Positions 2,276-46,029 of a stretch of DNA of 61,898 nucleotides are shown here, one piece after another (the stretch's first letter is position 1; every line of letters starts with the position of its first letter). The notes under the pieces were generated by a model. That model made no database searches. It saw only the letters and a list, made by a program, of their open reading frames with translations, and was not told the origin of the DNA. This DNA is from a virus. The position numbers were made by a program, and so were the translations under genes. Location of the stretch: positions 129,576 through 191,473 of IMG/VR virus record IMGVR_UViG_3300025534_000213. One strand, written 5' to 3'.

Positions 2276-3424
2276 TCACATGGCGAAGGCCCGGAAGCTC
2301 CGGCGGCCGGTCGCCTCGCGGACCAGCTTGGCCTCCGCCATCTCCCGCAACAGCCGCGTCGCCGCCTGCGGCGTCACGCCAAGGCGCCGCCCCAGCGCGG
2401 TCGGCGTCAGGCAGGGCGTCCGGATCGCCGCGTCGATGGCATCGCCCATGCGGGAGCTTCGCCTGCGCTGCCGCAGCATCCCCTCGGCGCGCTGGATGAT
2501 CCCGCCAAGGCGGTCCAACTCCGTCATGGCCGCGCGGGCACCCTCCGCAATCCCCCGCAGGAGCAGGCACCGTGCCTCATCGGTGTCCGCGAAGGGCGCT
2601 TCGAGCCGTCGCATACCCTGCAAGGCGCGGCGGGCGGTCCAGAGCGGCAGGGGCATGGCCCGCAGCCGCCCGGCCCCGGCCACCATCGCCGCCGCCACGA
2701 AACCGGCCCTCAGGTCCCCGCCTTCCCTGTCGTCAAGCTTGCGCCACGCCATCGCGGCATTGATGGCCGACAGCAGGGGAGGGGCCTTGCTGGTGTCGCT
2801 CCTTGCATCGGTCCAGTCCACGAAGGCGATCTCGGCCTCATAGTCGGCCAAGCCCAACGTCTCCATCGCCTTTCCGGCGGCGCTGGCATCGGCCAGCGGC
2901 TTCCATGAGCGGACCTCCGCAAGCCGCCGCAGGGCGCGCGCCAGCCCAAGGCAGAAAGCCACCACCCGGTCCTCCGGGACCGTCGAGGCATCCTCGTTCC
3001 GGGCCTCGGCCAGCGTATTGGGGAGGTTGGCGACCAGCCTGCCGGTGCTGGCCGCCGCCACATAGGACCCGGTGAGCCCGAGGTCGCGCAGGGCGAGGTC
3101 ATGCGGATGCACCCACAGGTCAAGGCTGGCGAGCCACCCGCTGGCCTCGCGGTAGGCCAGCCGGGCCACTGCGCCTTGGCGAACCGCCTCCGGCGCGGTC
3201 ATGGCCGCCGCGTCCATGCGCGACAGGGCGTCCTCGGCCTCGGACAGGTGGTGCAGCAGGTCATCGGAGGAAGAAGGCGCCGGGGGCGCCTTGGCGGGCG
3301 GCGGGCGCGTCAGCGACGACAGCACCGGGCGGAGAGGGCGCCCCGGCGGCTCCGGTTCCTCGTCCTCCCAGACCGGCCGGAACTGCCAGTCCTCCCGGTC
3401 CTCCTCCTCGTCCCAACCCCCCAT
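2276..3424 (-). CDS. DUF1612/RHE_PE00001-like protein with C-terminal HTH
   Basis: N-terminal Fic-like helices 'EAEDALSRMD..RLAYREA'; C-terminal wHTH ending 'REATGRRSFRAF'. Confidence 0.7.
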   Translation of the reverse strand: MGGWDEEEDREDWQFRPVWEDEEPEPPGRPLRPVLSSLTRPPPAKAPPAPSSSDDLLHHLSEAEDALSRMDAAAMTAPEAVRQGAVARLAYREASGWLASLDLWVHPHDLALRDLGLTGSYVAAASTGRLVANLPNTLAEARNEDASTVPEDRVVAFCLGLARALRRLAEVRSWKPLADASAAGKAMETLGLADYEAEIAFVDWTDARSDTSKAPPLLSAINAAMAWRKLDDREGGDLRAGFVAAAMVAGAGRLRAMPLPLWTARRALQGMRRLEAPFADTDEARCLLLRGIAEGARAAMTELDRLGGIIQRAEGMLRQRRRSSRMGDAIDAAIRTPCLTPTALGRRLGVTPQAATRLLREMAEAKLVREATGRRSFRAFAM

Positions 3425-4061: not shown

Positions 4062-5159
4062 TCAGCACGCGACTGCCGTTTGCACCGCAGGCTCCTGCCG
4101 CACCGCGACCGGTTCGACATTCGGCACCCTCTCGGAGCATTGCACGGGAAAACGCAGGATGCAGGTGGTGCCGCGTTGGTTCGCCCTGATCTCGATGACG
4201 CCCTCAAGCTGGGCCGCCAGCGCCCGGATGATGCGCCCGCCGAGGCCCGAACTCTCGTGCCCCGGATGGCCCACGCCATCATCACTGATCGTCAACACAT
4301 AGTTTGGCCCCTGCCGCTGGAAAGTGGCCGTGATCGTGCCGCTTCGTCCGTCAGGGTAGGCGTGCTTGAGGGCATTGGTGATGACCTCGTTGGCGATGAG
4401 GCCGAGAGCGCCCATCTGCGCGGGCGGCAGCGCGTGCGATTCGGCGTGGAGGACGATGCGGACCGGGCTGCCATCAAGGATACGCGCAAGATCGCTGACA
4501 AGGCCATGCAAGAAAACCCGACTGTCCACAACAACCGACGTATCGGTCATATGCAGCCGGTCATGCACGCGCGCTATGACGTTGATCCGCTCGGCTGCGG
4601 TCAGCAGGGCATTGGCGACATCGGGCGGGGCGCCCGCCGACTGCATCGTCAGCAGGGCCTTGATGCGCGCTATGTCGTTCTTTGTGCGGTGACCGAGTTC
4701 CACCAGTAGCAGGTCCCGCGCCTTCCGGGCCTCCTCGGCCTCCGCCCGCGCCGCGTCGGTTTCGGCGAGGGAGTCTTGCAGGGCCTCGACCACCACCGCC
4801 GTGAAGCATCCCACCAACAGGAAAATGATCACTTGTACGGGCTCGACATGCGCCATATCCACGATGCGCGTGGCGTCGGATGTGACCAGCAGCGCCAGTG
4901 CCGCGCTCAGGATGGTGGCATAGATGCCCGCGCCCCGCGAGAACATCACCGATGCAACGATGATCGCCGGGAATGCCAGCGTGTAGGACATCACGCCGGT
5001 CCCGCCGAACAGGGCATACCGGACTGCATAACAGGCGAGAACGAGGATGGTGGTCAGAGCCGTCCGTACATGTCGGGGATATGCACGGGTGCGTTTCGCA
5101 TACCCAAACACCGCCCTCGCACAGCGGCGGACCACGCGCGTGATCATGACACACCTCAC
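4062..5159 (-). CDS. membrane sensor histidine kinase (HisKA_2/HWE-like, DUF4118-like TM region)
   Basis: 4 TM helices, H-box 'ELGHRTKN', N-box 'NEVITNALKHA', G-boxes 'DDGVG', 'GLG'; start uncertain. Confidence 0.85.
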   Translation of the reverse strand: MRCVMITRVVRRCARAVFGYAKRTRAYPRHVRTALTTILVLACYAVRYALFGGTGVMSYTLAFPAIIVASVMFSRGAGIYATILSAALALLVTSDATRIVDMAHVEPVQVIIFLLVGCFTAVVVEALQDSLAETDAARAEAEEARKARDLLLVELGHRTKNDIARIKALLTMQSAGAPPDVANALLTAAERINVIARVHDRLHMTDTSVVVDSRVFLHGLVSDLARILDGSPVRIVLHAESHALPPAQMGALGLIANEVITNALKHAYPDGRSGTITATFQRQGPNYVLTISDDGVGHPGHESSGLGGRIIRALAAQLEGVIEIRANQRGTTCILRFPVQCSERVPNVEPVAVRQEPAVQTAVAC

Positions 5160-5288
5160 GGTTGTCCGGTGCGGCGGGAATGAATATTTGGCCGACGCGG
5201 GCAGGTCACCTCACCGTAAGCGAATTTACCTCTGATTGCAAGACATATGCGTTTGCAACCGTCAGGTGTAACCGCTCAGTGGCGCCCG

Positions 5289-5615
5289 TCAGGCCGCCAG
5301 CGCCAGCGCCTCCGGCGACAAGCCATTGACCTTGAACTTACGGTTGAAGCGCAGCAAATCATCCGCGCGCTTGAGCAGCAGGCACAGGCCGGAGCCGGTG
5401 GAGAAGGCCATGGGGAGCTTCGGGTAGCCCGGCGCATCCCCGTTGCCAAGGTGCCATTCCCCAGTCGCCTCGTTCAGCAGCCACTCACTCACCGCGCTCT
5501 CGAAATGACAGGCATCCACCGGCCCACGCTTCGCGGTCGGCCATGTGGGCGCACGGAGCGCCCACCAGCCATTATGCCTGCCGAGCAGCTTGAAGGTGAA
5601 CTTGGACTCCTGCAT
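5289..5615 (-). CDS. hypothetical protein
   Basis: 108-aa ORF downstream of tRNA-Thr. Confidence 0.55.
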   Translation of the reverse strand: MQESKFTFKLLGRHNGWWALRAPTWPTAKRGPVDACHFESAVSEWLLNEATGEWHLGNGDAPGYPKLPMAFSTGSGLCLLLKRADDLLRFNRKFKVNGLSPEALALAA

Positions 5616-5712
5616 GGGGGCAGGATAACAGCAACTCGGTTTTGGTCAACCGGAAAATCCAGTCAAGCAATCCGCGTGAAGGATATGACTGCTTGATGCT
5701 GGTCCCCTGAGA

Positions 5713-5788
5713 TGGTGCTGCCGAGAGGGATCGAACCTCCGGCCTTACCCTTACCAAGGGTATGCTCTACCAACTGAGCTACGGCAGC
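5713..5788 (-). tRNA. tRNA-Thr(GGT)
   Basis: Cloverleaf, anticodon arm TACCC-TTGGTAA-GGGTA, CCA end; TAAATA at 5801-5806 upstream. Confidence 0.95.
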
Positions 5789-5958
5789 CCGTGGAAACCT
5801 TATTTAGCTGACCGAATTTCTCCGGTCAATTTGTGCCGACGCCGCCATCTCATGTCGGCTTCACCGGCTTTTTCGGTTTCTCGGCCTCGATGGGCTTCGC
5901 GGTATTGATGGGCTTGATGGCGGCTTTCGGCTTCTTGGGCTTGCGGGGTTTCGCCATT

Positions 5959-6549
5959 TCAAAACCTCCGCTTGCTTCGAGGCACGGGCTTGCCTTGCCA
6001 CTCCAGCAGGAACAGCGTCACATCGGTCACTTCCCGGAACCCGAGGAGGCAGGTCCCCTCGGGCTGGTACCAGCGGGTGTCGTCCCGGCCTTCGTGCGGC
6101 TGCTTCTCCGGCCCGAAAGCCGAGCGGCAGTAATCCACGATGGCGTGCATCTGCCGCCGCGAGATCGCACGTGCGGGATGCAGCACATGCGGCAAGCGGG
6201 GCGCCCGGTTGTAGTTACGCACGGCCTCGACCCAAGTGACCGGTCCGCTATAGTCCATAAGTCTGAGGTGCTCGACGGCATAGTGCCCGTCGCTGCACGG
6301 TATGAGGTTGGCCTGCCGCGCGAGCTTTTGAGCGGCATCGTGCAAGCCCTCAAGGCTGATGGGCACAGCGTATGCATTAAAGTAGTTTTCGAAGAACGTG
6401 TTATAGTAGCCATCGTCAGCCCTGACGCAGCCGATGCATTCCCCATTGGCGAGCACCATCCATTCCTCGCGGATGCCCGGAACGGAGTCGATGGTACAGA
6501 TCACATCATCCCCGAGGTCGATGGTGAACGGAAGATCGATGTCAGCCAT
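5959..6549 (-). CDS. phage hypothetical protein
   Basis: MADIDLPF..., overlaps upstream gene stop; ends with 'F....D...F.L.W' motif shared with paralogs. Confidence 0.6.
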   Translation of the reverse strand: MADIDLPFTIDLGDDVICTIDSVPGIREEWMVLANGECIGCVRADDGYYNTFFENYFNAYAVPISLEGLHDAAQKLARQANLIPCSDGHYAVEHLRLMDYSGPVTWVEAVRNYNRAPRLPHVLHPARAISRRQMHAIVDYCRSAFGPEKQPHEGRDDTRWYQPEGTCLLGFREVTDVTLFLLEWQGKPVPRSKRRF

Positions 6550-6991
6550 GGGCGGCCGCGACGGCGGCGAGCATCTCCTCGGCTTGCCGGACGAACTCCC
6601 GCGTCTCCTCGGCGTGCCAGCAGAAATCACCCTCCCAGTCATGCTCGCGCACATAGGCGAGGGTTTCGGCGGCAGTGCCCCACTTGATGCTGTTGAACAG
6701 GTCCTTGCGGAGTTCCTCGATCTCCTCCTCGGAGGAGCATCCCTGCAACCGGTCGCATCCCGAGCACGACCCCCAGCCGAAGATCAGAATGCCCCAGAAG
6801 TCGCCATGGCGCAGCAGAACGCGGCTGTCGCCCTGATAGTCGTCGTCATCGACCTTGAGCATAACCGTGAACCCCATGCTTTCGATCAGGGGGTTGTAAT
6901 CGGTGATGTTGATGTATGTCCCATCGAGGTCCGCGCCATAGACTTGCCGCAACGGCTTCACGAGAAGTGCGTATTGGGTCTCGTCGAACAT
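6542..6991 (-). CDS. phage hypothetical protein
   Basis: 149 aa; 'DYQGDSRVL...WGSCSGCD' motif. Confidence 0.7.
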   Translation of the reverse strand: MFDETQYALLVKPLRQVYGADLDGTYINITDYNPLIESMGFTVMLKVDDDDYQGDSRVLLRHGDFWGILIFGWGSCSGCDRLQGCSSEEEIEELRKDLFNSIKWGTAAETLAYVREHDWEGDFCWHAEETREFVRQAEEMLAAVAAAHG

Positions 6992-7131
6992 GAAAGGGCC
7001 TTCTCAAAATCGTTCGGAATGATAGCTCAGGCTCATCGAGCCGGTCAACCAACCGAACATGGTTCAAAAACCGGTTTTGCTGCCTCGGGCGGCGATGGGC
7101 GTGGACCTAACAGGCCGCGCACCCGACAGCG

Positions 7132-7398
7132 TCAGAGCGAGTACACCTCCGCCTCGGGATCAAGCCGGATCATGGTGACGAAGTTGATCGCAAGCTGGGT
7201 CGGCCGCAGGATGCGCTCCTTGGTGTCGAAGGTCGCAAACCTGATGCGCGCCAGTCTTTCGCCGATTTCGTCCTCATCGGCCGCGAGACGCGAATAATCT
7301 TGGCGCACGGTATGGTCGAGGATATCAATTTCGATTCGGGAGAAGGCGTAGTGGACACCTTCCACCTCGGCCACCCATATCACGCGGCGTCGTTTCAT
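7132..7398 (-). CDS. hypothetical protein
   Basis: MKRRRVIW..., GAGG SD. Confidence 0.55.
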   Translation of the reverse strand: MKRRRVIWVAEVEGVHYAFSRIEIDILDHTVRQDYSRLAADEDEIGERLARIRFATFDTKERILRPTQLAINFVTMIRLDPEAEVYSL

Positions 7399-7481
7399 GC
7401 GAACCTCAGCACGAAAGCAAGCCGGGTTCCATCGGCGCAGTAATGGAGCCCGACCTTCTGCCTGATCCAATCGGCCATGGC

Positions 7482-8651
7482 TCAGCCCTCCCCGCCCTTG
7501 GCGAACACCGTGTTCATCCGCTCCTCGCTGGGGCGGGCCATCTTCTTGCCGCCTGCCAGCACCACGTCATGGAAGGTGAGGGGGAATTGGGTGAAGGGCC
7601 TCCCGTGGCTGCTGACCTTGAACACCACCGCGTTCCGGAAGGTGAAGCCCGCGCCGTCCGCGAAGGTCACGACGAAAGTCCCCTCAAGGCCGCCGAGCGA
7701 GACGGAGTGCTTGACCGCCTCGCACTTGGTCAAGGCCGCCTGCTTCTCCTTCGCCTCGACGATGGAGACGATCTTGCGGAGATTCTTGGCGACGAATGCA
7801 TCGCGGACCTCCTCGGCGTCCTTGCGGGCAAGGGCGGCGATGATTCGGTCGGCGTCCGGCTTCACTTTCGGGGTGATGCTGCGGCAGTTCTCGCTTTCGT
7901 CCAGCACGGCGTCGAGGAAACGGGCATCCACGCTGATTCCGGTGGCGCGCTGGTCGCGCAGGTATTGGCTCAGCGGATAGATGCGGTTCGGCTTCTCGGA
8001 GACGGCGATCTCCGCCACCTTGGCGTCGCGGAGCCGGACGAAGCGGTCAAGCTCGGCCTGATAGCGCCTGACGAAGGCAGCCACCAGCGCCTCAAACTGC
8101 TCGTTCACCAGCGCGGACAGCATGGCATGGAGCCGCTGGCTGGCCTCGGTGCTGGCGCGGGGAGCAACGAAGCGCGGATTGGCCTCCGCCTTCGGTTGTC
8201 GCTTCACGATCCGGCTCTTGTCCGCCGCGAAGTAGGCGAACGCATCGGCGATAGGGGCGACCTCTGCCACGAACCGGCGCATGGCCTCGACCAGCGGCGC
8301 CACCTCGGGGCAGGCCGGAGCCTTGGCGAGGCGCTTCTGGATCGTCTTGTGCCAGCCATGGATGCCGCCATTGATGAAGGCGGTCTCCCACGCGAAATCC
8401 CGCGCCTCCTCGGACATCTTCTCCCCGGAGAAGCGGGGCTCGACCGGTTCGCGGACCGCCTTCCACGCATCCTCGATGACCCGGCCGAGGACTTCCTTGG
8501 CCTCCTGATAGACCGGATTGGCGATGGACCCGGCCTGCACGCCCGCCTCAAGGACGGCGATCATCTTGGCGATCCGCTCGGCGCGGTAGCCGGAGGGGCG
8601 ACCGGCGACGGGGGCGAACAGGCTCGGAAAGCGGCTGGACATGTCGGCCAT
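7482..8651 (-). CDS. phage hypothetical protein
   Basis: 389-aa ORF with strong GC3 codon bias. Confidence 0.75.
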   Translation of the reverse strand: MADMSSRFPSLFAPVAGRPSGYRAERIAKMIAVLEAGVQAGSIANPVYQEAKEVLGRVIEDAWKAVREPVEPRFSGEKMSEEARDFAWETAFINGGIHGWHKTIQKRLAKAPACPEVAPLVEAMRRFVAEVAPIADAFAYFAADKSRIVKRQPKAEANPRFVAPRASTEASQRLHAMLSALVNEQFEALVAAFVRRYQAELDRFVRLRDAKVAEIAVSEKPNRIYPLSQYLRDQRATGISVDARFLDAVLDESENCRSITPKVKPDADRIIAALARKDAEEVRDAFVAKNLRKIVSIVEAKEKQAALTKCEAVKHSVSLGGLEGTFVVTFADGAGFTFRNAVVFKVSSHGRPFTQFPLTFHDVVLAGGKKMARPSEERMNTVFAKGGEG

Positions 8652-8738
8652 CGGGTTCGCCCTTTGTCAAATCGCGTTCAGTGGGACCAGATTATCCGGT
8701 TCCACCGTTTCGTCAAGTGATTCCGCAAAAATATACGG

Positions 8739-9249
8739 TCAGCCGGGGAAGTCGATCAGTTCCTCCGAGCGGACGAGAGCGTACCCGGCCATCGTCAGCT
8801 TGGTAGCGACCTCATCAGTGATGATGCCGAAGAACCCGCTCCTGACGCGGATGACCGCATTTGCGCCGACGAGAGGGTACGGTACCTCCCTTGGAAAAGG
8901 TTTCGACCTCTTGGCCCCTCCTCCCCCGTGGCGGAAGCATGATCCAGCGGTACGGACACGAACCGGCGCGACCTCGGTAGATAGCCATGCGGGTGACGAG
9001 TTCATGGAGGTCGGATTTGCTGATCCCGAGGCGAACACATAGCCTGCGGCGGCGCAGTGCCTCGTCGAATTTCTCAGGCGAGATGTCGTCTCCCACCATC
9101 AAATGCGCCCGCCGACGGCACGACGGCTTGCCGCGATGGCATGAATCTCATCAACGGAGAGTCGATCATCGATCTTGGAATTGAGCGCCTGAGTTTCATC
9201 GGGCCAGAAAAGTCCCGTGTCGAGGTCGATGATACGCACGGCACTCATG
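8739..9249 (-). pseudogene. probable frameshifted hypothetical gene
   Basis: Protein-like text switches between three frames (MSAVRIIDLD.. / ..DDISPEKF.. / ..EVPYPLVG..). Confidence 0.35.
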
Positions 9250-9307
9250 TCCGTCCCGCCTTGAGCTTTGCGCTAGCTCGCGTCGGAAAGGTTTGCAGCA
9301 GGAACCA

Positions 9308-9562
9308 TCAGTCCGGCTTTTGGTCCTTGGTCGTATCAGGAGAGCGGACAGCGAACACGGCCGTGCGGGCGCCGGTCCGGAACAGTGGCCCCGAGCCGTC
9401 CGCCGCCCGGTATCCGCGTGCGTACTTGCGGAGGATGGTGTCCGGGTGGCCCTTGAAATGGAACAGCCCGCCGACCGGAATGTCCCGGTACAAGGCGTTC
9501 CCCATGTTGAAGGCCACGGCGGCGGCCATGGCCTCCTCGTCGCGCTGGTCGGTGCCTGCCAT
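9308..9562 (-). CDS. hypothetical protein
   Basis: MAGTDQRD..., in operon. Confidence 0.55.
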   Translation of the reverse strand: MAGTDQRDEEAMAAAVAFNMGNALYRDIPVGGLFHFKGHPDTILRKYARGYRAADGSGPLFRTGARTAVFAVRSPDTTKDQKPD

Positions 9563-9566
9563 GGCC

Positions 9567-9845
9567 TCAGCCCTCCTTCGGGAAATAGGCGACCAGTCGG
9601 TCAGCCTTGATACGCCGCTCCCAGACCTGCTTCCGGTCGCTGCGGGGATCACGGTTGCGCAGTTTGAACAGCAGGAATTGCGCGCTGGCCTTCTCGATGC
9701 CGACCACCTCGTAGCCATGGGCGTCGTTGTTCCAGCGCGTCACGTCGCCCGCCACGAACTCGCACGCGGGCTTGGCCGGTGCCGGGCCGATGCCTTGCAG
9801 GTGGATGGTCGGGACGGTTGACCCGTCCCGCTGCCGGATCGTCAT
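9567..9845 (-). CDS. hypothetical protein
   Basis: 92-aa ORF in tight operon. Confidence 0.65.
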   Translation of the reverse strand: MTIRQRDGSTVPTIHLQGIGPAPAKPACEFVAGDVTRWNNDAHGYEVVGIEKASAQFLLFKLRNRDPRSDRKQVWERRIKADRLVAYFPKEG

Positions 9846-9848
9846 GGT

Positions 9849-10217
9849 TCAGCCCCCGATCCGCTCGAAGCCGAAGGGGGCGACCATGTGCAGGGCATTG
9901 TCGAGCATCAGGATGTCGCCGATGTCGGTCGAGCGATGGCCGTACAGTTTGCCGTTGTGCTTGATGGGCTGGACCAGCGGGGTAAGGCCCTCGGGCGGCT
10001 CCATGGTCCAAGAGGGGGAGACCACGCCATTCTGGGTGAGCTTGAACGCGAGGTTGAGGTCGTCGGTGTCCACCGTGGCGACCGCCTCGTAATGACCGGC
10101 CTTGAACGCGGCGCGGGCGGCGTCGATCTGCGCGGAAGCGTCGCCGGGCGGCGGGAGGGTGACGGTCAGCCGGGTGTCACGGTCGAGATCGCGCTTGAGG
10201 TGATAGATCGTGATCAT
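9849..10217 (-). CDS. phage hypothetical protein (YodL-like 'RSxxxGDI' motif)
   Basis: 'HRSTDIGDIL...VAPFGF'. Confidence 0.65.
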   Translation of the reverse strand: MITIYHLKRDLDRDTRLTVTLPPPGDASAQIDAARAAFKAGHYEAVATVDTDDLNLAFKLTQNGVVSPSWTMEPPEGLTPLVQPIKHNGKLYGHRSTDIGDILMLDNALHMVAPFGFERIGG

Positions 10218-10279
10218 GGGCGGCGGCTCCCTTCGTTCCGGAGGGCAGCCTAGCGCAAAACGATGGTCCGTCAACCAAA

Positions 10280-10702
10280 TTAATTCGGTTTGTGGGATGC
10301 CTCTGCCAGTCCGGGCAGGTACAGGAGGAAATTGGCGACCGTTTCCTGATCCGTCGCCAAGAGATCGAAGTGCCAGACTTTGCGGGTCACCGGGTCAGGC
10401 GCCGGATAATGGCTGATGAGCACCTCGCCCGTGCCAAGCTCACAGCGAATCATGGTCAGCCACCCCATCGGCTTCCTGTCCGCGCTCATGAGGAAAATGC
10501 GTTTGAGGGTCCACTGGGCATCCAAGAAGGTACCTTCGGCAGTGCCTTTGCGATGCCACTGGCGGACGGCCTCGTCATAGATTTGGCAGATATCGGCCTC
10601 GACCGCACCCGCCATGCTATTGCTGAAATCGAATGGGAGCCGTTGCTTGAGATCGGCGAGGAGGGCCATCCCCTCGCCATGGTTCATCCCTTCCGCCATC
10701 AT
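10280..10702 (-). CDS. hypothetical protein
   Basis: 140-aa ORF, ATGA-type overlap with neighbour. Confidence 0.6.
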   Translation of the reverse strand: MMAEGMNHGEGMALLADLKQRLPFDFSNSMAGAVEADICQIYDEAVRQWHRKGTAEGTFLDAQWTLKRIFLMSADRKPMGWLTMIRCELGTGEVLISHYPAPDPVTRKVWHFDLLATDQETVANFLLYLPGLAEASHKPN

Positions 10703-11454
10703 GTCCGGCGCTTGGGCTCCACCGGCACGATCTTCGTGATCTCCACATCCTCGGGCAGCACGACGATCTCACTCTCGCCCCGGCCGATGAAATGGGCCAG
10801 CACCGCCTCCCGGCACACGACCCCCTCGGCGAGCAGGGGTGTTCGGGCCGCCATGTCCGCATAGCGCCGGGCGAACCAGACCGCCTTCTCCCGGTCGGTG
10901 GTCCAAGAGAGGCCGGAAACGGCATCCTTGTGCCCCACGCCCCGCCAGATGGTGATCGTCTCCGGCAAGGCCGCGAGCGCGGCGCGCTCGGCCTCGTCCA
11001 TGCACGCTTCCCGTCCGAGACGCTCCGACTGCCACAGGTCGCACCAGAGATCGTAATTCTCGTGAATGTTTTCGCTGTCGGTCCAGACCCAGCCGAGGTA
11101 CTCCCAGAACTCGGTGTCGGAGATGAGATGGTACACCTCGTTGAGGGCGTCGAGACGCCATGCCCGCTCGTGCAGGACGAGATATTCGCCCCATCGGCGC
11201 TCCTGCGCGGCTGTCTCCACGGCAGCCTTCTTCGCCGCGTACATCTCGTTCATGCGCGCGTTGAGCATGGGTAAATGCGGCACCGAGTAGACGAGCGGGT
11301 GCTGTAGGACCTGCCCGAGCTTCGGGTGCGTGTAGAGATAGGCTTGCAGGTCCGGATGGAGGTCCTCCTGCCGCGTGAAACTCTCCATCAGCTTTGCGGC
11401 TGCCGGGTCGGCCATGAGTTCCGCAAGGCCCATCGTCTTGGTCTGGTCGGTCAT
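10699..11454 (-). CDS. ADP-ribosyltransferase-like protein (R-S-E type motifs)
   Basis: 'ITIWRG', 'GLSWTTD..A.WFA', 'GRGESEIVV'. Confidence 0.6.
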   Translation of the reverse strand: MTDQTKTMGLAELMADPAAAKLMESFTRQEDLHPDLQAYLYTHPKLGQVLQHPLVYSVPHLPMLNARMNEMYAAKKAAVETAAQERRWGEYLVLHERAWRLDALNEVYHLISDTEFWEYLGWVWTDSENIHENYDLWCDLWQSERLGREACMDEAERAALAALPETITIWRGVGHKDAVSGLSWTTDREKAVWFARRYADMAARTPLLAEGVVCREAVLAHFIGRGESEIVVLPEDVEITKIVPVEPKRRT

Positions 11455-11905
11455 GGATCGTCCCGCTGGGTGACACCGATCTGATGAAGATAGGGGATGA
11501 GGCGCTCGCTGACATGCCCCGTGACCATTTCAAGCCTCGGGCCGTTCATCCGCCACAGCCCCCTTGCCAGAGGACATGTCTTTCGGGCTCGGAGCGATAG
11601 TAGCCGGAGATGTGAGCCTTGATCTTCCGTCCCACCTCGCGGGCAGCGATGGTCCGATGGTTCCCGTCCGAGACGCTGTAGAGGATTTTCCGGCCGAGCC
11701 GGTGGCCCACGACTTTGATGGTCGGAGCCTTCTCCCCGGCGGCCAGACGCTTCCGGCAGTCCTCCAAGCGGATCGGCTTCCACGCCTCGGCCAGCACGTT
11801 CTTGGTGGAAAGCCAGCGGATAACATCCGCGCTCTCCCATTCGCCCGCGACGAGAGCGAGGGCGCGATCCAGCAGATGCGCGGGGCCGAGGTCTTGGTCG
11901 GACAT
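11451..11905 (-). pseudogene. ParB/Srx-like domain protein, frameshifted at G5 run (11559-11563)
   Basis: 'SVSDGNHRTIAA'; adding one G extends the reading to the ATGA overlap at 11451. Confidence 0.55.
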
Positions 11906-12210
11906 GCCGACCATTATCGCAGAAAATGGAGGCTCGTCAACCGAGTTCTTCGGTTCATACGAAAAGGCCCCAGCCGTGCGAGCGGCCGGGGCCATGGGTG
12001 GAGAAGAATGGTGAAAGAATGGTGAAAGAATGGTGAAAGAATGGCAAAAGAGACTAAGAGTGATTTAGACGGCGGGACCTGCCGACCATCATCGCAGAAA
12101 ATGGAGGTCTATCAACCGAATTCTTCAGTTCGTACGAAAAGGCCCCAGCCGTGCGAGCGGCCGGGGCCATGGGTGGAGAAAGAATGGTGAAAGAATGGCG
12201 AAAGAGACTA
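11906..12210 (-). repeat. two direct copies (11906-12056, 12081-12210) of a terminator + sigma70-like promoter cassette with an 11-bp tandem (agaatggtgaa)
   Basis: Near-identical sequence; hairpin GGCCCC..GGGGCC-TTTT then TTGAC/TTGAT ... GATAAT/GATGAT on minus. Confidence 0.9.
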
Positions 12211-23369: not shown

Positions 23370-24263
23370 TCAGGCCGATGGCGAATAGCGGTCCAGAACC
23401 GCCCGCAGGTCGCCGATCAGCGCATCAAGGGATGGGTTGCGCGCCACCGCCGTGGACAGGCTGCCGTAATGTGCCTCAAGGCATTCGAGAAGCACCTGCT
23501 TGATCCGCTCCTCGTCGGGCGCGTGCCGCAGCGTGCTCTTGGCGTACACCTCCTCAAGCGACCGCTCCTTCATGGCGAAGTATTCCTCGATCTGCTCACG
23601 GGTCCACTCGCCACGTCGGATCGACTTCAACTGCTCCCGGTTCCGCTCAAGGTCGAGATCGTGTTCGACCATGATCTGCTCGACCTCGTTGAGCAGCCGC
23701 ACCAGATGATAGGCGAATTTGGTGGAGTAACCGTACTTCTCGATATCGGCGGCGCGCTTCTCGTTCGCGTAGTTCACCTTGTTCCGAATCTTGCTCGCTT
23801 GGCTGTAGGCATATCCTTTGAATTTGTGCCATGCGCCCTTGTGCAAGAACAGACGACGGTTCGCCCGGACATGCTCACCAATCACCGTAGAATGCAGCAC
23901 GCACCGACGCGGCGTGAAGATGCTGTCGAGCATGTTCGGATTGTTTTCCATGCACAGGTGGAAGTACTTCACGATCCCATACACCGCGAAGTCATATTCC
24001 ACCTCGCGGTCGGGGTGCCGGACATGGTGCTCGCTCCACTGCTCGAACCGTTGAATCTGCCGCCCGAAGCCGGGGATTTCGCCCGCCAGATGGGGGAACA
24101 CGAGTTCCTTGGGTGGGATGCAGAAACCATACACGTCCACATCCGAGGAGGAGCCATCGACCCCATACGCGGCCGAACCCATGATGGTGAGGTACTGGGT
24201 ATTGGCGATCAGCCATTTCGGTGGATGGATGAGGTTCGCTCCAGCGAGCTTCTGCAATAGCAT
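23370..24263 (-). CDS. Pol-beta superfamily nucleotidyltransferase (phage NrdC.11/RlaP-like)
   Basis: 'GSAAYG....SDVDVYG', 'NNPNMLD', 'KFAYHLVRLL', 'IRRG'. Confidence 0.85.
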   Translation of the reverse strand: MLLQKLAGANLIHPPKWLIANTQYLTIMGSAAYGVDGSSSDVDVYGFCIPPKELVFPHLAGEIPGFGRQIQRFEQWSEHHVRHPDREVEYDFAVYGIVKYFHLCMENNPNMLDSIFTPRRCVLHSTVIGEHVRANRRLFLHKGAWHKFKGYAYSQASKIRNKVNYANEKRAADIEKYGYSTKFAYHLVRLLNEVEQIMVEHDLDLERNREQLKSIRRGEWTREQIEEYFAMKERSLEEVYAKSTLRHAPDEERIKQVLLECLEAHYGSLSTAVARNPSLDALIGDLRAVLDRYSPSA

Positions 24264-24540
24264 TGTTCGACCAACTAAAATCGGTTTTAAGGCCAATTAT
24301 TGCATTGCGCCTTGATCTGGGGAGATCGGGCCTTGGCGCCAAGGCCCAACCGGTGGACAACAATCGAGACTGGAACAATACCACCGACCCCGAAATCCGG
24401 CGCTTCTTGCAGGAGGACGCAGCCGAAGGGCGCCGGGACTGCGACTGACAGAGCTTGACGATCTGCGGTCCACGGCAGGTGAAGCCTTGAACCGAGCCGC
24501 CGAGGCCGGGGCGTGGGTTGTTGGATGGTGATCTGGCGCC

Positions 24541-25665: not shown

Positions 25666-26067
25666 TCAGAGAAGGCGCATCCGCTGCACGTATTTCGGCA
25701 GGCCGCTGCGGGGTGTTGGACCAACGGCCATGCAGGTTACGGTCGGCTCTGTGAACTCGGTCCGTCCGGCATCCGTCACCACGCAGACCGGGAGGCCCGC
25801 CGCTCGGCATTCCTCGGCTGCACGCCGGATGGCGTTCAGGTTCTTGGCCCGGACGGCGATCTTCCCCTGCTGGCCGGAAAGATAGGTTTCGAGGCCGGGG
25901 TGACCGGCTCGCCGCGCCGCCTCGACCACACCCACACCCACAAACGCGTGCCCGGCCTGCGCCATGGCCTTTCCGGGCGACATGGTGATGTCCTCCCGTA
26001 CCAGAAGATAGAGGCGCGGCTCGTCCTCGCTGCGCTCGCCGGGGATGCCGATGATGTCGTCGGTCAT
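25666..26067 (-). CDS. pth2: peptidyl-tRNA hydrolase type 2
   Basis: 'MSPGKAMAQAGHA', 'KIAV', 'DAGRTE', 'TCMAVGP'. Confidence 0.9.
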   Translation of the reverse strand: MTDDIIGIPGERSEDEPRLYLLVREDITMSPGKAMAQAGHAFVGVGVVEAARRAGHPGLETYLSGQQGKIAVRAKNLNAIRRAAEECRAAGLPVCVVTDAGRTEFTEPTVTCMAVGPTPRSGLPKYVQRMRLL

Positions 26068-27608: not shown

Positions 27609-27701
27609 CGAAAAAAAATCGGTACGACTCTACCATATTTTAATAGTTCCATTCCGGTGGCCCGTCTGGTATGGTGCCGCCATTGCAGGAGGCCATTTGA
27701 G

Positions 27702-29128
<1,427 letters not shown>

Positions 29129-44835: not shown

Positions 44836-44920
44836 TGGAGCGGTCGGCGGGGATCGAACCCGCGTGAACTATTCGCCTCAAGGTTGGAAGCCTTGCGCTC
44901 TACCGCTGAGCTACGACCGC
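44836..44920 (-). tRNA. tRNA-Gly(TCC) with long variable region
   Basis: GCG...CGC-TCCA ends; CAAGG-CTTCCAA-CCTTG; 15-nt variable region. Confidence 0.85.
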
Positions 44921-45003: not shown

Positions 45004-45125
45004 ACGGCGGGAGGATATTTAGCCAAGCGGAACGGAAAGCGCAACCGGAAAACGTGGTTCTAACCTGAGATAACTCGGTTAGCTCATTTCTAAATAGTCT
45101 CGTTCATGGTTCGAACGAGATTTTA

Positions 45126-45695
45126 GTGTCAGCTATTTCAGTACGCAATTGGCGGAAGAACACGAAACTCCGCATGGTCGAAGCAATGGGTGGGCGATGT
45201 GGCAACTGTGGCTACGACCGCTGCGCCGACGCTTTGGAGTTTCACCACGTAGACCCGGCCGAGAAGGATTTTACCATCGCGGGCGTCCGGGCGAGCCCCA
45301 TGGCATGGTCGAAGATTGTCGCGGAACTCCGCAAGTGCGTGATGCTCTGCGCGAACTGTCACCGGGAGGTCCACGCTGGGGTGGCGGAGATCGCTCCCGG
45401 CGCCCCTCGGTTTGACGAAGCCTTCGCCGACTACAAGGCCGCTGCGCGAGAGGCTCGCATGTGCGACTGCCCGGTCTGTGGATCACGGATGCCGCAGACG
45501 AAAAAGACGTGCTCGCCAGCCTGCTCGGCATCGGCGCGGCAGAAGGTCGATTGGTCGCAGTACGATTTGGTGGAGATGTCGAGGACCATGTCCAAGACGG
45601 AGATTGCAGCCATCATCGGTGTGTCCGATGTGGCGATCCATAAGCGGTTGAAGAAAATGGCTCCGGGTGCTGGACTCGAACCAGCGACAGCCTGA
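45126..45695 (+). CDS. HNH endonuclease with C-terminal Zn ribbon and HTH
   Basis: 'CGNCGY...LEFHH.DP..K...KC..LCANCHREVH'; TAAATA 45091-45096 then hairpin 45098-45120. Confidence 0.9.
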   Translation: MSAISVRNWRKNTKLRMVEAMGGRCGNCGYDRCADALEFHHVDPAEKDFTIAGVRASPMAWSKIVAELRKCVMLCANCHREVHAGVAEIAPGAPRFDEAFADYKAAAREARMCDCPVCGSRMPQTKKTCSPACSASARQKVDWSQYDLVEMSRTMSKTEIAAIIGVSDVAIHKRLKKMAPGAGLEPATA

Positions 45696-45817
45696 TTAAA
45701 GGGCGACCTTATGGGCTTTAAGCCCTCGGGTCGTCAGGGGGCTTGGCTTCCACCAAGCCTCCGAGGCGTTACCCGCCACGGATCAGTCAGGTGCTCTACC
45801 AACTGAGCTAACCCGGA
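45658..45817 (-). tRNA. tRNA-Asn(GTT) interrupted by 84-nt insertion (45700-45783) in the anticodon
   Basis: 5' half TCCGGGTTAGCTCAGTTGGTAGAGCACCTGACTG and 3' half TTAATCAGG...TTCGAGT...ACCCGGAGCCA join to a standard cloverleaf. Confidence 0.85.
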
Positions 45818-46029
45818 TCAGTATACCTATTTAGCAAACCACGTTTAGACGCTTCCGGGGCACCCGCACAGGAAGAGAGGAGAGTGAGACTATGGGTGCC
45901 CCGGAAGCCGGGTTTCATTGGAGTTTCAGCGAGGCGGTAGGCTAGGTGCCTCGCTGATGGGGTCTTTCTACAGGCTGGTGCCACTGGCGTCAACCGCCAA
46001 ATGCGGTTCGTACCGTGTTTTGCCGTTCG

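Follow-up and report, generated by a model that had tools for sequence, protein, structure and literature searches.

A structured 84-nt insert in the anticodon of a phage tRNA-Asn gene, overlapped by an antisense HNH endonuclease gene

A split tRNA-Asn gene and a convergent HNH gene

The window analysed here, a stretch of 61,898 nt (positions 129,576 to 191,473) of the virus record IMGVR_UViG_3300025534_000213, carries on its minus strand a tRNA-Asn gene (45817-45658) that is split within the anticodon. With introns allowed (-i), ARAGORN called a tRNA-Asn(gtt) gene interrupted after position 34 by an 84-nt insert, and the Rfam tRNA model matched 45661-45817 with 53 bits, in agreement with an earlier note on this DNA that had placed an 84-nt insert between positions 34 and 35. 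The two programs and the exon split put the 5' exon at 45784..45817 (-), from U1 to G34, and ARAGORN and the split put the 3' exon at 45658..45699 (-), from U35 to G73-CCA. The insert lies between them at 45700..45783 (-), and because it begins with A and ends with U, 34/35 is the sole register that restores a GUU loop. Joined, the exons form a 76-nt cloverleaf with G73 and an encoded CCA. This split gene is the only Asn tRNA of the contig, which is 38% complete.

Both exons and the promoter had been described in the earlier note as intact, which held for the exons; at the promoter no sigma-70-like sites were detected, and a CTAAATA motif was found instead, 10 nt before the tRNA (45828..45834, -). 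CTAAATA occurs 26 times in the genome and is the commonest of the 105 permutations of its letters (median 2), and by analogy we read it as a putative T4-type late promoter. Directly upstream of the motif lies a GC-rich inverted repeat (45851-45908) that perhaps terminates upstream transcription.

A free-standing HNH endonuclease gene with a GTG start (45126..45695, +; PHROG 35854, E 1e-35) converges with the tRNA gene, covering the 38 nt at the tRNA's 3' end and stopping 4 nt before the insert. The earlier note had reported this 4-nt distance correctly, but it carries no significance of its own, since the HNH stop merely reads antisense to the UCA of the anticodon stem and the gap is thus a by-product. 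The protein comprises a zinc-finger HNH, a second Cys4 finger and a C-terminal helix-turn-helix, with weak Pfam matches to HTH and treble-clef families. Residues C25, C28, H40, H41, C75, N77, C78 and H79 are invariant in 12 of 12 aligned relatives, and the active site and zinc ligands are, as judged from this alignment, intact. The top Foldseek rows were HNH nucleases, none of them reaching E 0.001. The single-sequence fold was poor (pLDDT 58), and a PDB sequence search with the protein returned no match. Ahead of the start, the stretch 45090..45121 (+) holds another CTAAATA motif and a hairpin (45097-45121; z -3.07), and the same motif and a TTTTAGTG start precede the HNH gene of the Sinorhizobium phage phiM7. 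The position of the HNH start in a hairpin region resembles the promoter-hairpin control of T4 homing endonucleases, as set out in published passages on them (PMC2988022).

The virus record (191 kb, 63% GC, judged 38% complete) has portal, capsid and baseplate genes of the T4 type and about 20 tRNA genes. Its RNA-repair genes, drawn from a scan of 143 ORFs of at least 130 aa (shorter ORFs and two long ones set aside), comprise one Rnl1-type ligase, two Rnl2-type ligases and a Pnk-like kinase, and it also encodes a CCA-adding enzyme and an NYN-domain protein. Large phages commonly carry RNA ligases for other reasons. Neither EndA (PF01974) nor RtcB was matched in the contig at its 38% completeness. 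The CCA-adding enzyme, a tRNA-Asp, the NYN-domain protein (genome 92720-93385), which is a candidate RNA-cutting enzyme, and a tRNA-Ile are grouped at genome positions 89719-93573. Within the window, a threonine-tRNA ligase (27657-29126, +), the peptidyl-tRNA hydrolase PTH2 (25669-26067, -) and an RlaP nucleotidyltransferase (23373-24296, -) make up a rich kit for translation and RNA repair. Among the tRNAs, one (window 44836-44920, -) combines a Gly (UCC) anticodon with the kind of long variable arm seen in Leu, Ser and Tyr tRNAs, and another (genome 71482-71556, -) has a CUA (amber) anticodon, is called Pyl by ARAGORN and is a possible suppressor. Phage-encoded type I-E-like CRISPR genes (Cas3, Cse1, Cas7-like, Cas5 and Cas6-like, by Pfam) occupy genome positions 4176-11982.

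Fold and family of the insert

As the earlier note had claimed, the insert folds into three hairpins, with an MFE of -43.2 kcal/mol and a z-score of -4.31 (0 of 200 shuffles equally stable). Homologous inserts, whose absence would have counted against the earlier note's reading, were sought in a single scan of metagenome contigs that used exon context only, namely Asn exons 63-93 nt apart, and 3 of the 46 loci found (L190, L199 and L215) carry them. The scan pattern imposed CTG and TTAA at the junctions of these three homologues, and junction conservation is therefore no independent evidence. Most of the 112 matches of a first scan were tandem tRNAs, and these were dropped. A covariance model based on only the L199 copy recovered the remaining three end to end (E 5e-13 to 3e-6), the window insert at E 1.5e-8, and nothing beyond the family copies in 517 kb.

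The four copies share 54-81% pairwise identity over 84-88 nt and sit in surrounding DNA of 29-63% GC, yet have identical ends at 34/35 (the last insert base being U, A, A and U) and adopt the same fold (z -4.2 to -4.8). Helix P1, with a U.U mismatch and an invariant GGGU-A at its loop (45760..45782, -), has seven pairs, 100% of cells paired and one double change. In P2 (45740..45759, -) the sequence is free and the structure kept, with double changes at 8 of 8 pairs on an alignment fitted to the model. A linker with an invariant CUGA follows (45734..45739, -); in the MFE fold of the whole precursor this CUGA can also pair with UCA(GG) of the 3' exon. The remainder (45704..45733, -) consists of P3, an internal loop NGA/RUAA and P4 with a YUAAA loop, P3 and P4 showing two and three double changes and invariant unpaired bases. 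With the copies aligned by fitting to the model, pairing holds in 98% of cells and double changes occur at 14 of 26 pairs, a total in which the share of P2 (8 of 14) was aided by the fitting; outside P2 the figure is 6 of 18. In the four copies, 17 of the 27 gap-free unpaired columns are invariant, comprising A+1, the U.U mismatch, GGGU-A, the C and bulged A of CUGA, the GA and A of the internal loop, and UAAA. An RNAalifold run on a MAFFT alignment was set aside, as misalignment lost P1 and P2 and gave an invariant 5-bp hairpin without covariation.

All four acceptor stems differ in sequence, carry compensatory changes and are fully paired, and the joined exons give 76-nt tRNAs in every copy, with G73 and CCA in 4 of 4. 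Uninterrupted Asn genes with the identical 17-nt arm were found at L115 and L207. Downstream of the split Asn gene of L199 lies another unusual tRNA-like gene, whose anticodon arm is extended (L199:116-205, -; z -2.0).

Further scans yielded no members, and the family is therefore rare in the collections searched. Context-free or relaxed motif scans gave 0 family members among 13, 24 and 38 matches, another such scan gave 0 of 93 (judged by eye, with no model), and the same type of scan gave no match in GTDB genomes. An exon scan of GTDB returned 41 loci, read as tandem tRNAs or anticodon-arm modules, with no insert of the family. No match was found in five whole virus records, nor by blastn among cultured phages. 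In DNA contigs we saw no joint that skips the insert, and short exon matches were to the tRNAs of other organisms, which speaks neither for nor against removal; no insert-less allele of the window's own phage was seen among them.

Comparison with known intron classes

Searched alone against Rfam 15, the window insert reached at best E 2.9, to an unrelated hairpin, and the L190 and L199 inserts gave nothing up to E 10. By the criteria of Williams, a group I intron needs U at -1 and a terminal G, where here -1 is G34 and no register ends in G; the group I core (RF00028) was matched in none of the one genome searched (0/1) nor by the insert alone, and a P3-like pseudoknot of the window insert, as in a P3/P7 core, is missing from the homologues. 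Group II introns have GUGYG...AY ends and six domains. The insert starts with AUCCG, is 84-88 nt long in the family and has no Rfam match to that class. In one simple register test for the bulge-helix-bulge of archaeal and eukaryal tRNA introns, the central 4-bp helix failed in 4 of 4 copies. Nor is the insert tRNA-shaped, as are those of the Lak type, L120 and phiM7, which are marked by a closing acceptor-like stem and a 7-nt T-loop: alone it has no tRNA match, whereas the L120 insert scores 35 bits. What it has in common with tRNA-shaped inserts is that it is short, has fixed ends and sits within an intact phage tRNA, in the anticodon loop. The homologues with identical ends and the covariation support the earlier note's suggestion of a new mini-intron other than group I or II.

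Inserts at the tRNA-Asn anticodon of other phages

Among cultured phages, the Sinorhizobium phages phiM7, phiM12 and phiM19 carry the same arrangement of a CTAAATA motif, a GTG start, an antisense HNH gene (41.5%) and a split Asn gene. The 123-nt gene annotated in them as tRNA-Thr or tRNA-OTHER is a tRNA-Asn split by 46 nt, which in phiM7 lies on the minus strand (KR052480.1 92505-92627; L443:1460-1580) and is overlapped by the antisense HNH gene; its insert is a mini-tRNA, and its position can only be 35/36. In phage phiN3, the flanks are syntenic and 94% identical to those of phiM7, phiM12 and phiM19, and neither the HNH gene nor the insert is present; at the phiN3 site (L451:423-500) the tract from D-loop to variable loop differs. 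Relatives of the window HNH are, as this sequence comparison indicates, patchily distributed at a syntenic site between phiM7/M12/M19 and phiN3.

Short inserts of unrelated kinds lie at 34/35 or 35/36 of tRNA-Asn in phages, the two positions being ambiguous for inserts that begin with T, and the same scans show the Asn anticodon to be an insertion hotspot. We collected 19 distinct Asn inserts and dropped two that have no tRNA exon on their 5' side. The set thus comprised the window and 16 others, and the majority of the others look tRNA-shaped.

The insert of L120 holds a nested tRNA match that ends in CCA; whole CCA-ended tRNA-like cloverleafs occupy 34/35 of tRNA-Asn at L120:3015-3089 and L177:~3015-3105, and their ends would fit RNase P plus a 3' cut. 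Tracts of 64-74 nt, tRNA-shaped and at the Asn anticodon, occur at L116, L118, L119, L123, L125, L183, L188, L192, L207 and L218, with additional intron-like tRNA calls at L188 and L192. At L178:1986-2147, an Asn-like gene has a 90-nt insert like neither insert class. The array holding the nested-tRNA insert of L120 also contains a GOLLD RNA over the gathering score (L120:4068-4583). Five loci (L186, L194, L252, L256 and L265) carry tRNA-bodied RNAs with an anticodon-arm module, ending in CTC-TTAAT; two of them lie in Deinococcus genomes, and they are possibly Y-RNA-like.

Association of the HNH gene with the insertion site

Of the 16 other insert-split Asn genes, 5 have a relative of the window HNH within 130 nt, compared with 1 of 51 distinct uninterrupted Asn genes at loci drawn from tRNA patterns, a weak control with many near-duplicates from other virus groups. 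In the closest HNH relative (49%; L125/L214) the antisense overlap is the same, but the adjoining insert is a different one of 71 nt. Conversely, L199 has an insert of the family, but its HNH is short, upstream and on the same strand, with a stop that spans the exon-insert junction. A rough tree placed the window HNH in a clade of seven rows with L116, L125 and L126, and L199 outside it; the window and L199 HNHs are unlike in length, side and tree position. Because the same HNH family adjoins different inserts and the tree splits the window from L199, nuclease and insert are separate modules meeting at one site. At L190 and L215, no HNH of the window's family was found in the 2.6 and 3.6 kb examined.

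The anticodon arms of uninterrupted Asn genes differ with proximity to the nuclease. The usual G30-R31 arm was present in 2 of 13 clusters within 150 nt of an HNH (the other 11 having altered arms) versus 25 of 38 farther away (p 0.003). With one doubtful call and five pattern-biased rows removed and one row moved, the counts were 3 of 13 versus 20 of 32 (p 0.023); all these counts are small and uncorrected for kinship. The usual arm is kept by all four insert-family copies. Such a pattern would be expected if immunity came about by insertion or by substitution, which lends good comparative support to the earlier note's idea that an insert protects the site from the HNH; the HNH is not tied to this particular insert. 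Against such immunity stand Lak A1 and C1, where an ordinary Asn gene without interruption lies about 100 nt from an HNH, phiN3, whose arm is altered in the absence of an HNH, and L190 and L215, with no HNH in the DNA examined. Odd loops (TTGTTAC, TTGTTAG and CTGTTAC) were seen in tRNA-Asn-like genes at L118, L131, L218, L405 and L411, and several HNH-bearing clusters have Asn genes with long variable arms (85-95 nt).

Proposed mechanism and alternative explanations

Our preferred reading, in which we place about as much belief as doubt, is that the insert is a protein-spliced mini-intron that would be resealed by phage RNA ligases, would shield its allele from the HNH and would hitchhike by collaborative homing. 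Removal of the insert from the precursor is in itself probable, being favoured because the fixed ends, Asn identity bases and compensated stems would be hard to keep otherwise. In the proposed sequence of events, the late promoter would give a precursor in which the insert forms three helices atop the anticodon stem; a putative nuclease would then read the conserved unpaired bases and cut both insert ends, and one of the phage's RNA ligases, helped if necessary by the kinase, would rejoin the exons into a normal tRNA-Asn. In a mixed infection, the HNH would cut insert-less genes that have the usual G-R-C-T-G-T-T-A-A-Y-C arm, and repair would copy HNH and insert together, as collaborative homing. 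Cutting by a protein is favoured, since folds at this site are unrelated to one another and no catalytic core can be recognised; as unrelated inserts occupy 34/35 or 35/36 of tRNA-Asn, a shared protein route would be simpler than one ribozyme per insert. Position 34/35 is also where colicin E5-type nucleases cut queuosine-family tRNAs; no link of the insert to such a defence was found in this analysis, and the anticodon shield raised in the earlier note gained no specific support.

It is possible, although unlikely, that the insert is never removed and that the gene encodes a non-decoding tRNA mimic, its body a scaffold or decoy and its insert a protein-binding element, like the YrlA-type Y RNAs. 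The same scans did return tRNA-bodied RNAs with an anticodon-arm module, for which the Y-RNA reading is conjectural, and an uninterrupted Asn gene is kept at several insert-bearing loci (L118, L177, L183, L192 and L218), so that a split gene need not decode. The family inserts, however, have no match to YrlA/Y RNA (RF02553), and no TROVE/Ro60 gene was matched in the incomplete contig. A GUCCG/UGAC pairing with a bulged C is the mark of Ro binding, and such a pairing in the insert is contradicted by compensatory changes in P3. Ends fixed to the base, and G73 and CCA kept throughout the family, also argue against a mimic.

Rather unlikely, too, is a new small ribozyme that would cut one or both junctions or self-splice, with the ligase finishing the reaction if needed. 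The size of the insert and its 17 invariant unpaired bases would fit a compact tertiary or catalytic core, and the internal CUGA can displace the 5' strand of the anticodon stem by pairing with the 3' exon. UGA stands at 29-31 in 4 of 4 host exons versus 3 of 13 other insert-split genes (p 0.015, hand tally), as guide pairing would need, though this may stem from shared descent. An alternative pairing of P1 GCGGGU with a 3' GUYCGC, which the window copy cannot form but the other three can, hints at a switch. Against these points, the insert alone matched no covariance model of the known small ribozymes of Rfam 15, and a small ribozyme normally cuts one site. The hammerhead-like CUGACG lies in a pairing that shows compensatory changes, and a GAAA partner for it is missing. 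The P1 loop is too short for the HDV-type consensus fold. In a stronger form of this idea, which we regard as quite improbable, the insert would found a new class of small catalytic introns, self-excising from tRNA at 34/35 with the internal CUGA as guide for the 3' exon and spread by an HNH that targets tRNA-Asn, in a mini-intron form of collaborative homing.

That the gene is dead and the insert persists just as DNA hitchhiking on HNH homing is very improbable. Immunity to the HNH at the DNA level needs no RNA function, but the compensatory changes, which affect each of the four helices as well as the acceptor stem, show that the RNA is under selection, and two of the copies have been kept where the DNA examined holds no HNH.

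Relation to known systems

The preferred reading, of a spliced and homing mini-intron, can be approached experimentally. The insert family has a defined 84-nt fold, fixed ends and invariant bases and is directly testable, and the phiM12 group and phiN3 form a cultured pair in which splicing and collaborative homing could be tested in Sinorhizobium. If splicing is true, it would be a way of splicing tRNAs that the portions of the literature searched do not describe in bacteria or their phages, would imply that either a ribozyme or a nuclease of a new type is at work, and would account for the spread of such inserts. That literature, with subscription journals mostly outside it, held no account of the insert fold, of phage tRNA-Asn inserts or of the pairing with an HNH, and no later answer since Lak on how short non-group-I inserts leave phage tRNAs.

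Several described systems share parts of this arrangement, as far as the available passages on them go. Introns of group I that lie within tRNA genes also interrupt the anticodon loop, but have U(-1), a terminal G and a catalytic core, where the insert has G at -1, ends in U or A and has no core. T4 SegB is a homing endonuclease of a tRNA cluster whose major site lies within a tRNA-Asn gene (PMC2330249); it too is free-standing, targets tRNA-Asn and has a late promoter and an RNA hairpin before its gene (PMC2330249, PMC2988022). SegB is, in contrast, a GIY-YIG enzyme that reads a T-arm motif, whereas the putative target of the window HNH is the anticodon arm, and insert-based immunity is not among the features described for SegB in those passages (PMC2330249).

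Collaborative homing, in which introns spread with free-standing homing endonucleases (PMC2988022, PMC10448857), is alike in joining a nuclease-less insert at a conserved site to an adjoining free-standing nuclease gene, with both parts present (the phiM12 group) or both absent (phiN3). As described in the passages available, it concerns self-splicing introns in protein genes (PMC2988022, PMC10448857); the element here differs in being an 84-nt non-group-I insert in a tRNA, with an HNH family that partners several unrelated inserts.

Closest to the insert are the 'enigmatic' introns in the tRNAs of Lak megaphages (Devoto et al.; bioRxiv 10.1101/356790, PMC6784885 Table S6), which, in the published passages on them, are likewise structured anticodon-loop inserts of about 80-115 nt in tRNAs of huge phages, with no Rfam family, and whose removal is nowhere shown there. 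The Lak inserts in those passages differ in lying in Tyr, Phe, Thr and Gly tRNAs, in being AT-rich and in ending with a tRNA-like T arm, where the window insert lies at 34/35 of tRNA-Asn and has another, three-helix fold without the GUUCRA T-loop. Short enigmatic inserts in phage tRNAs are thus already known from Lak, and the window insert is a new structural variant of them.
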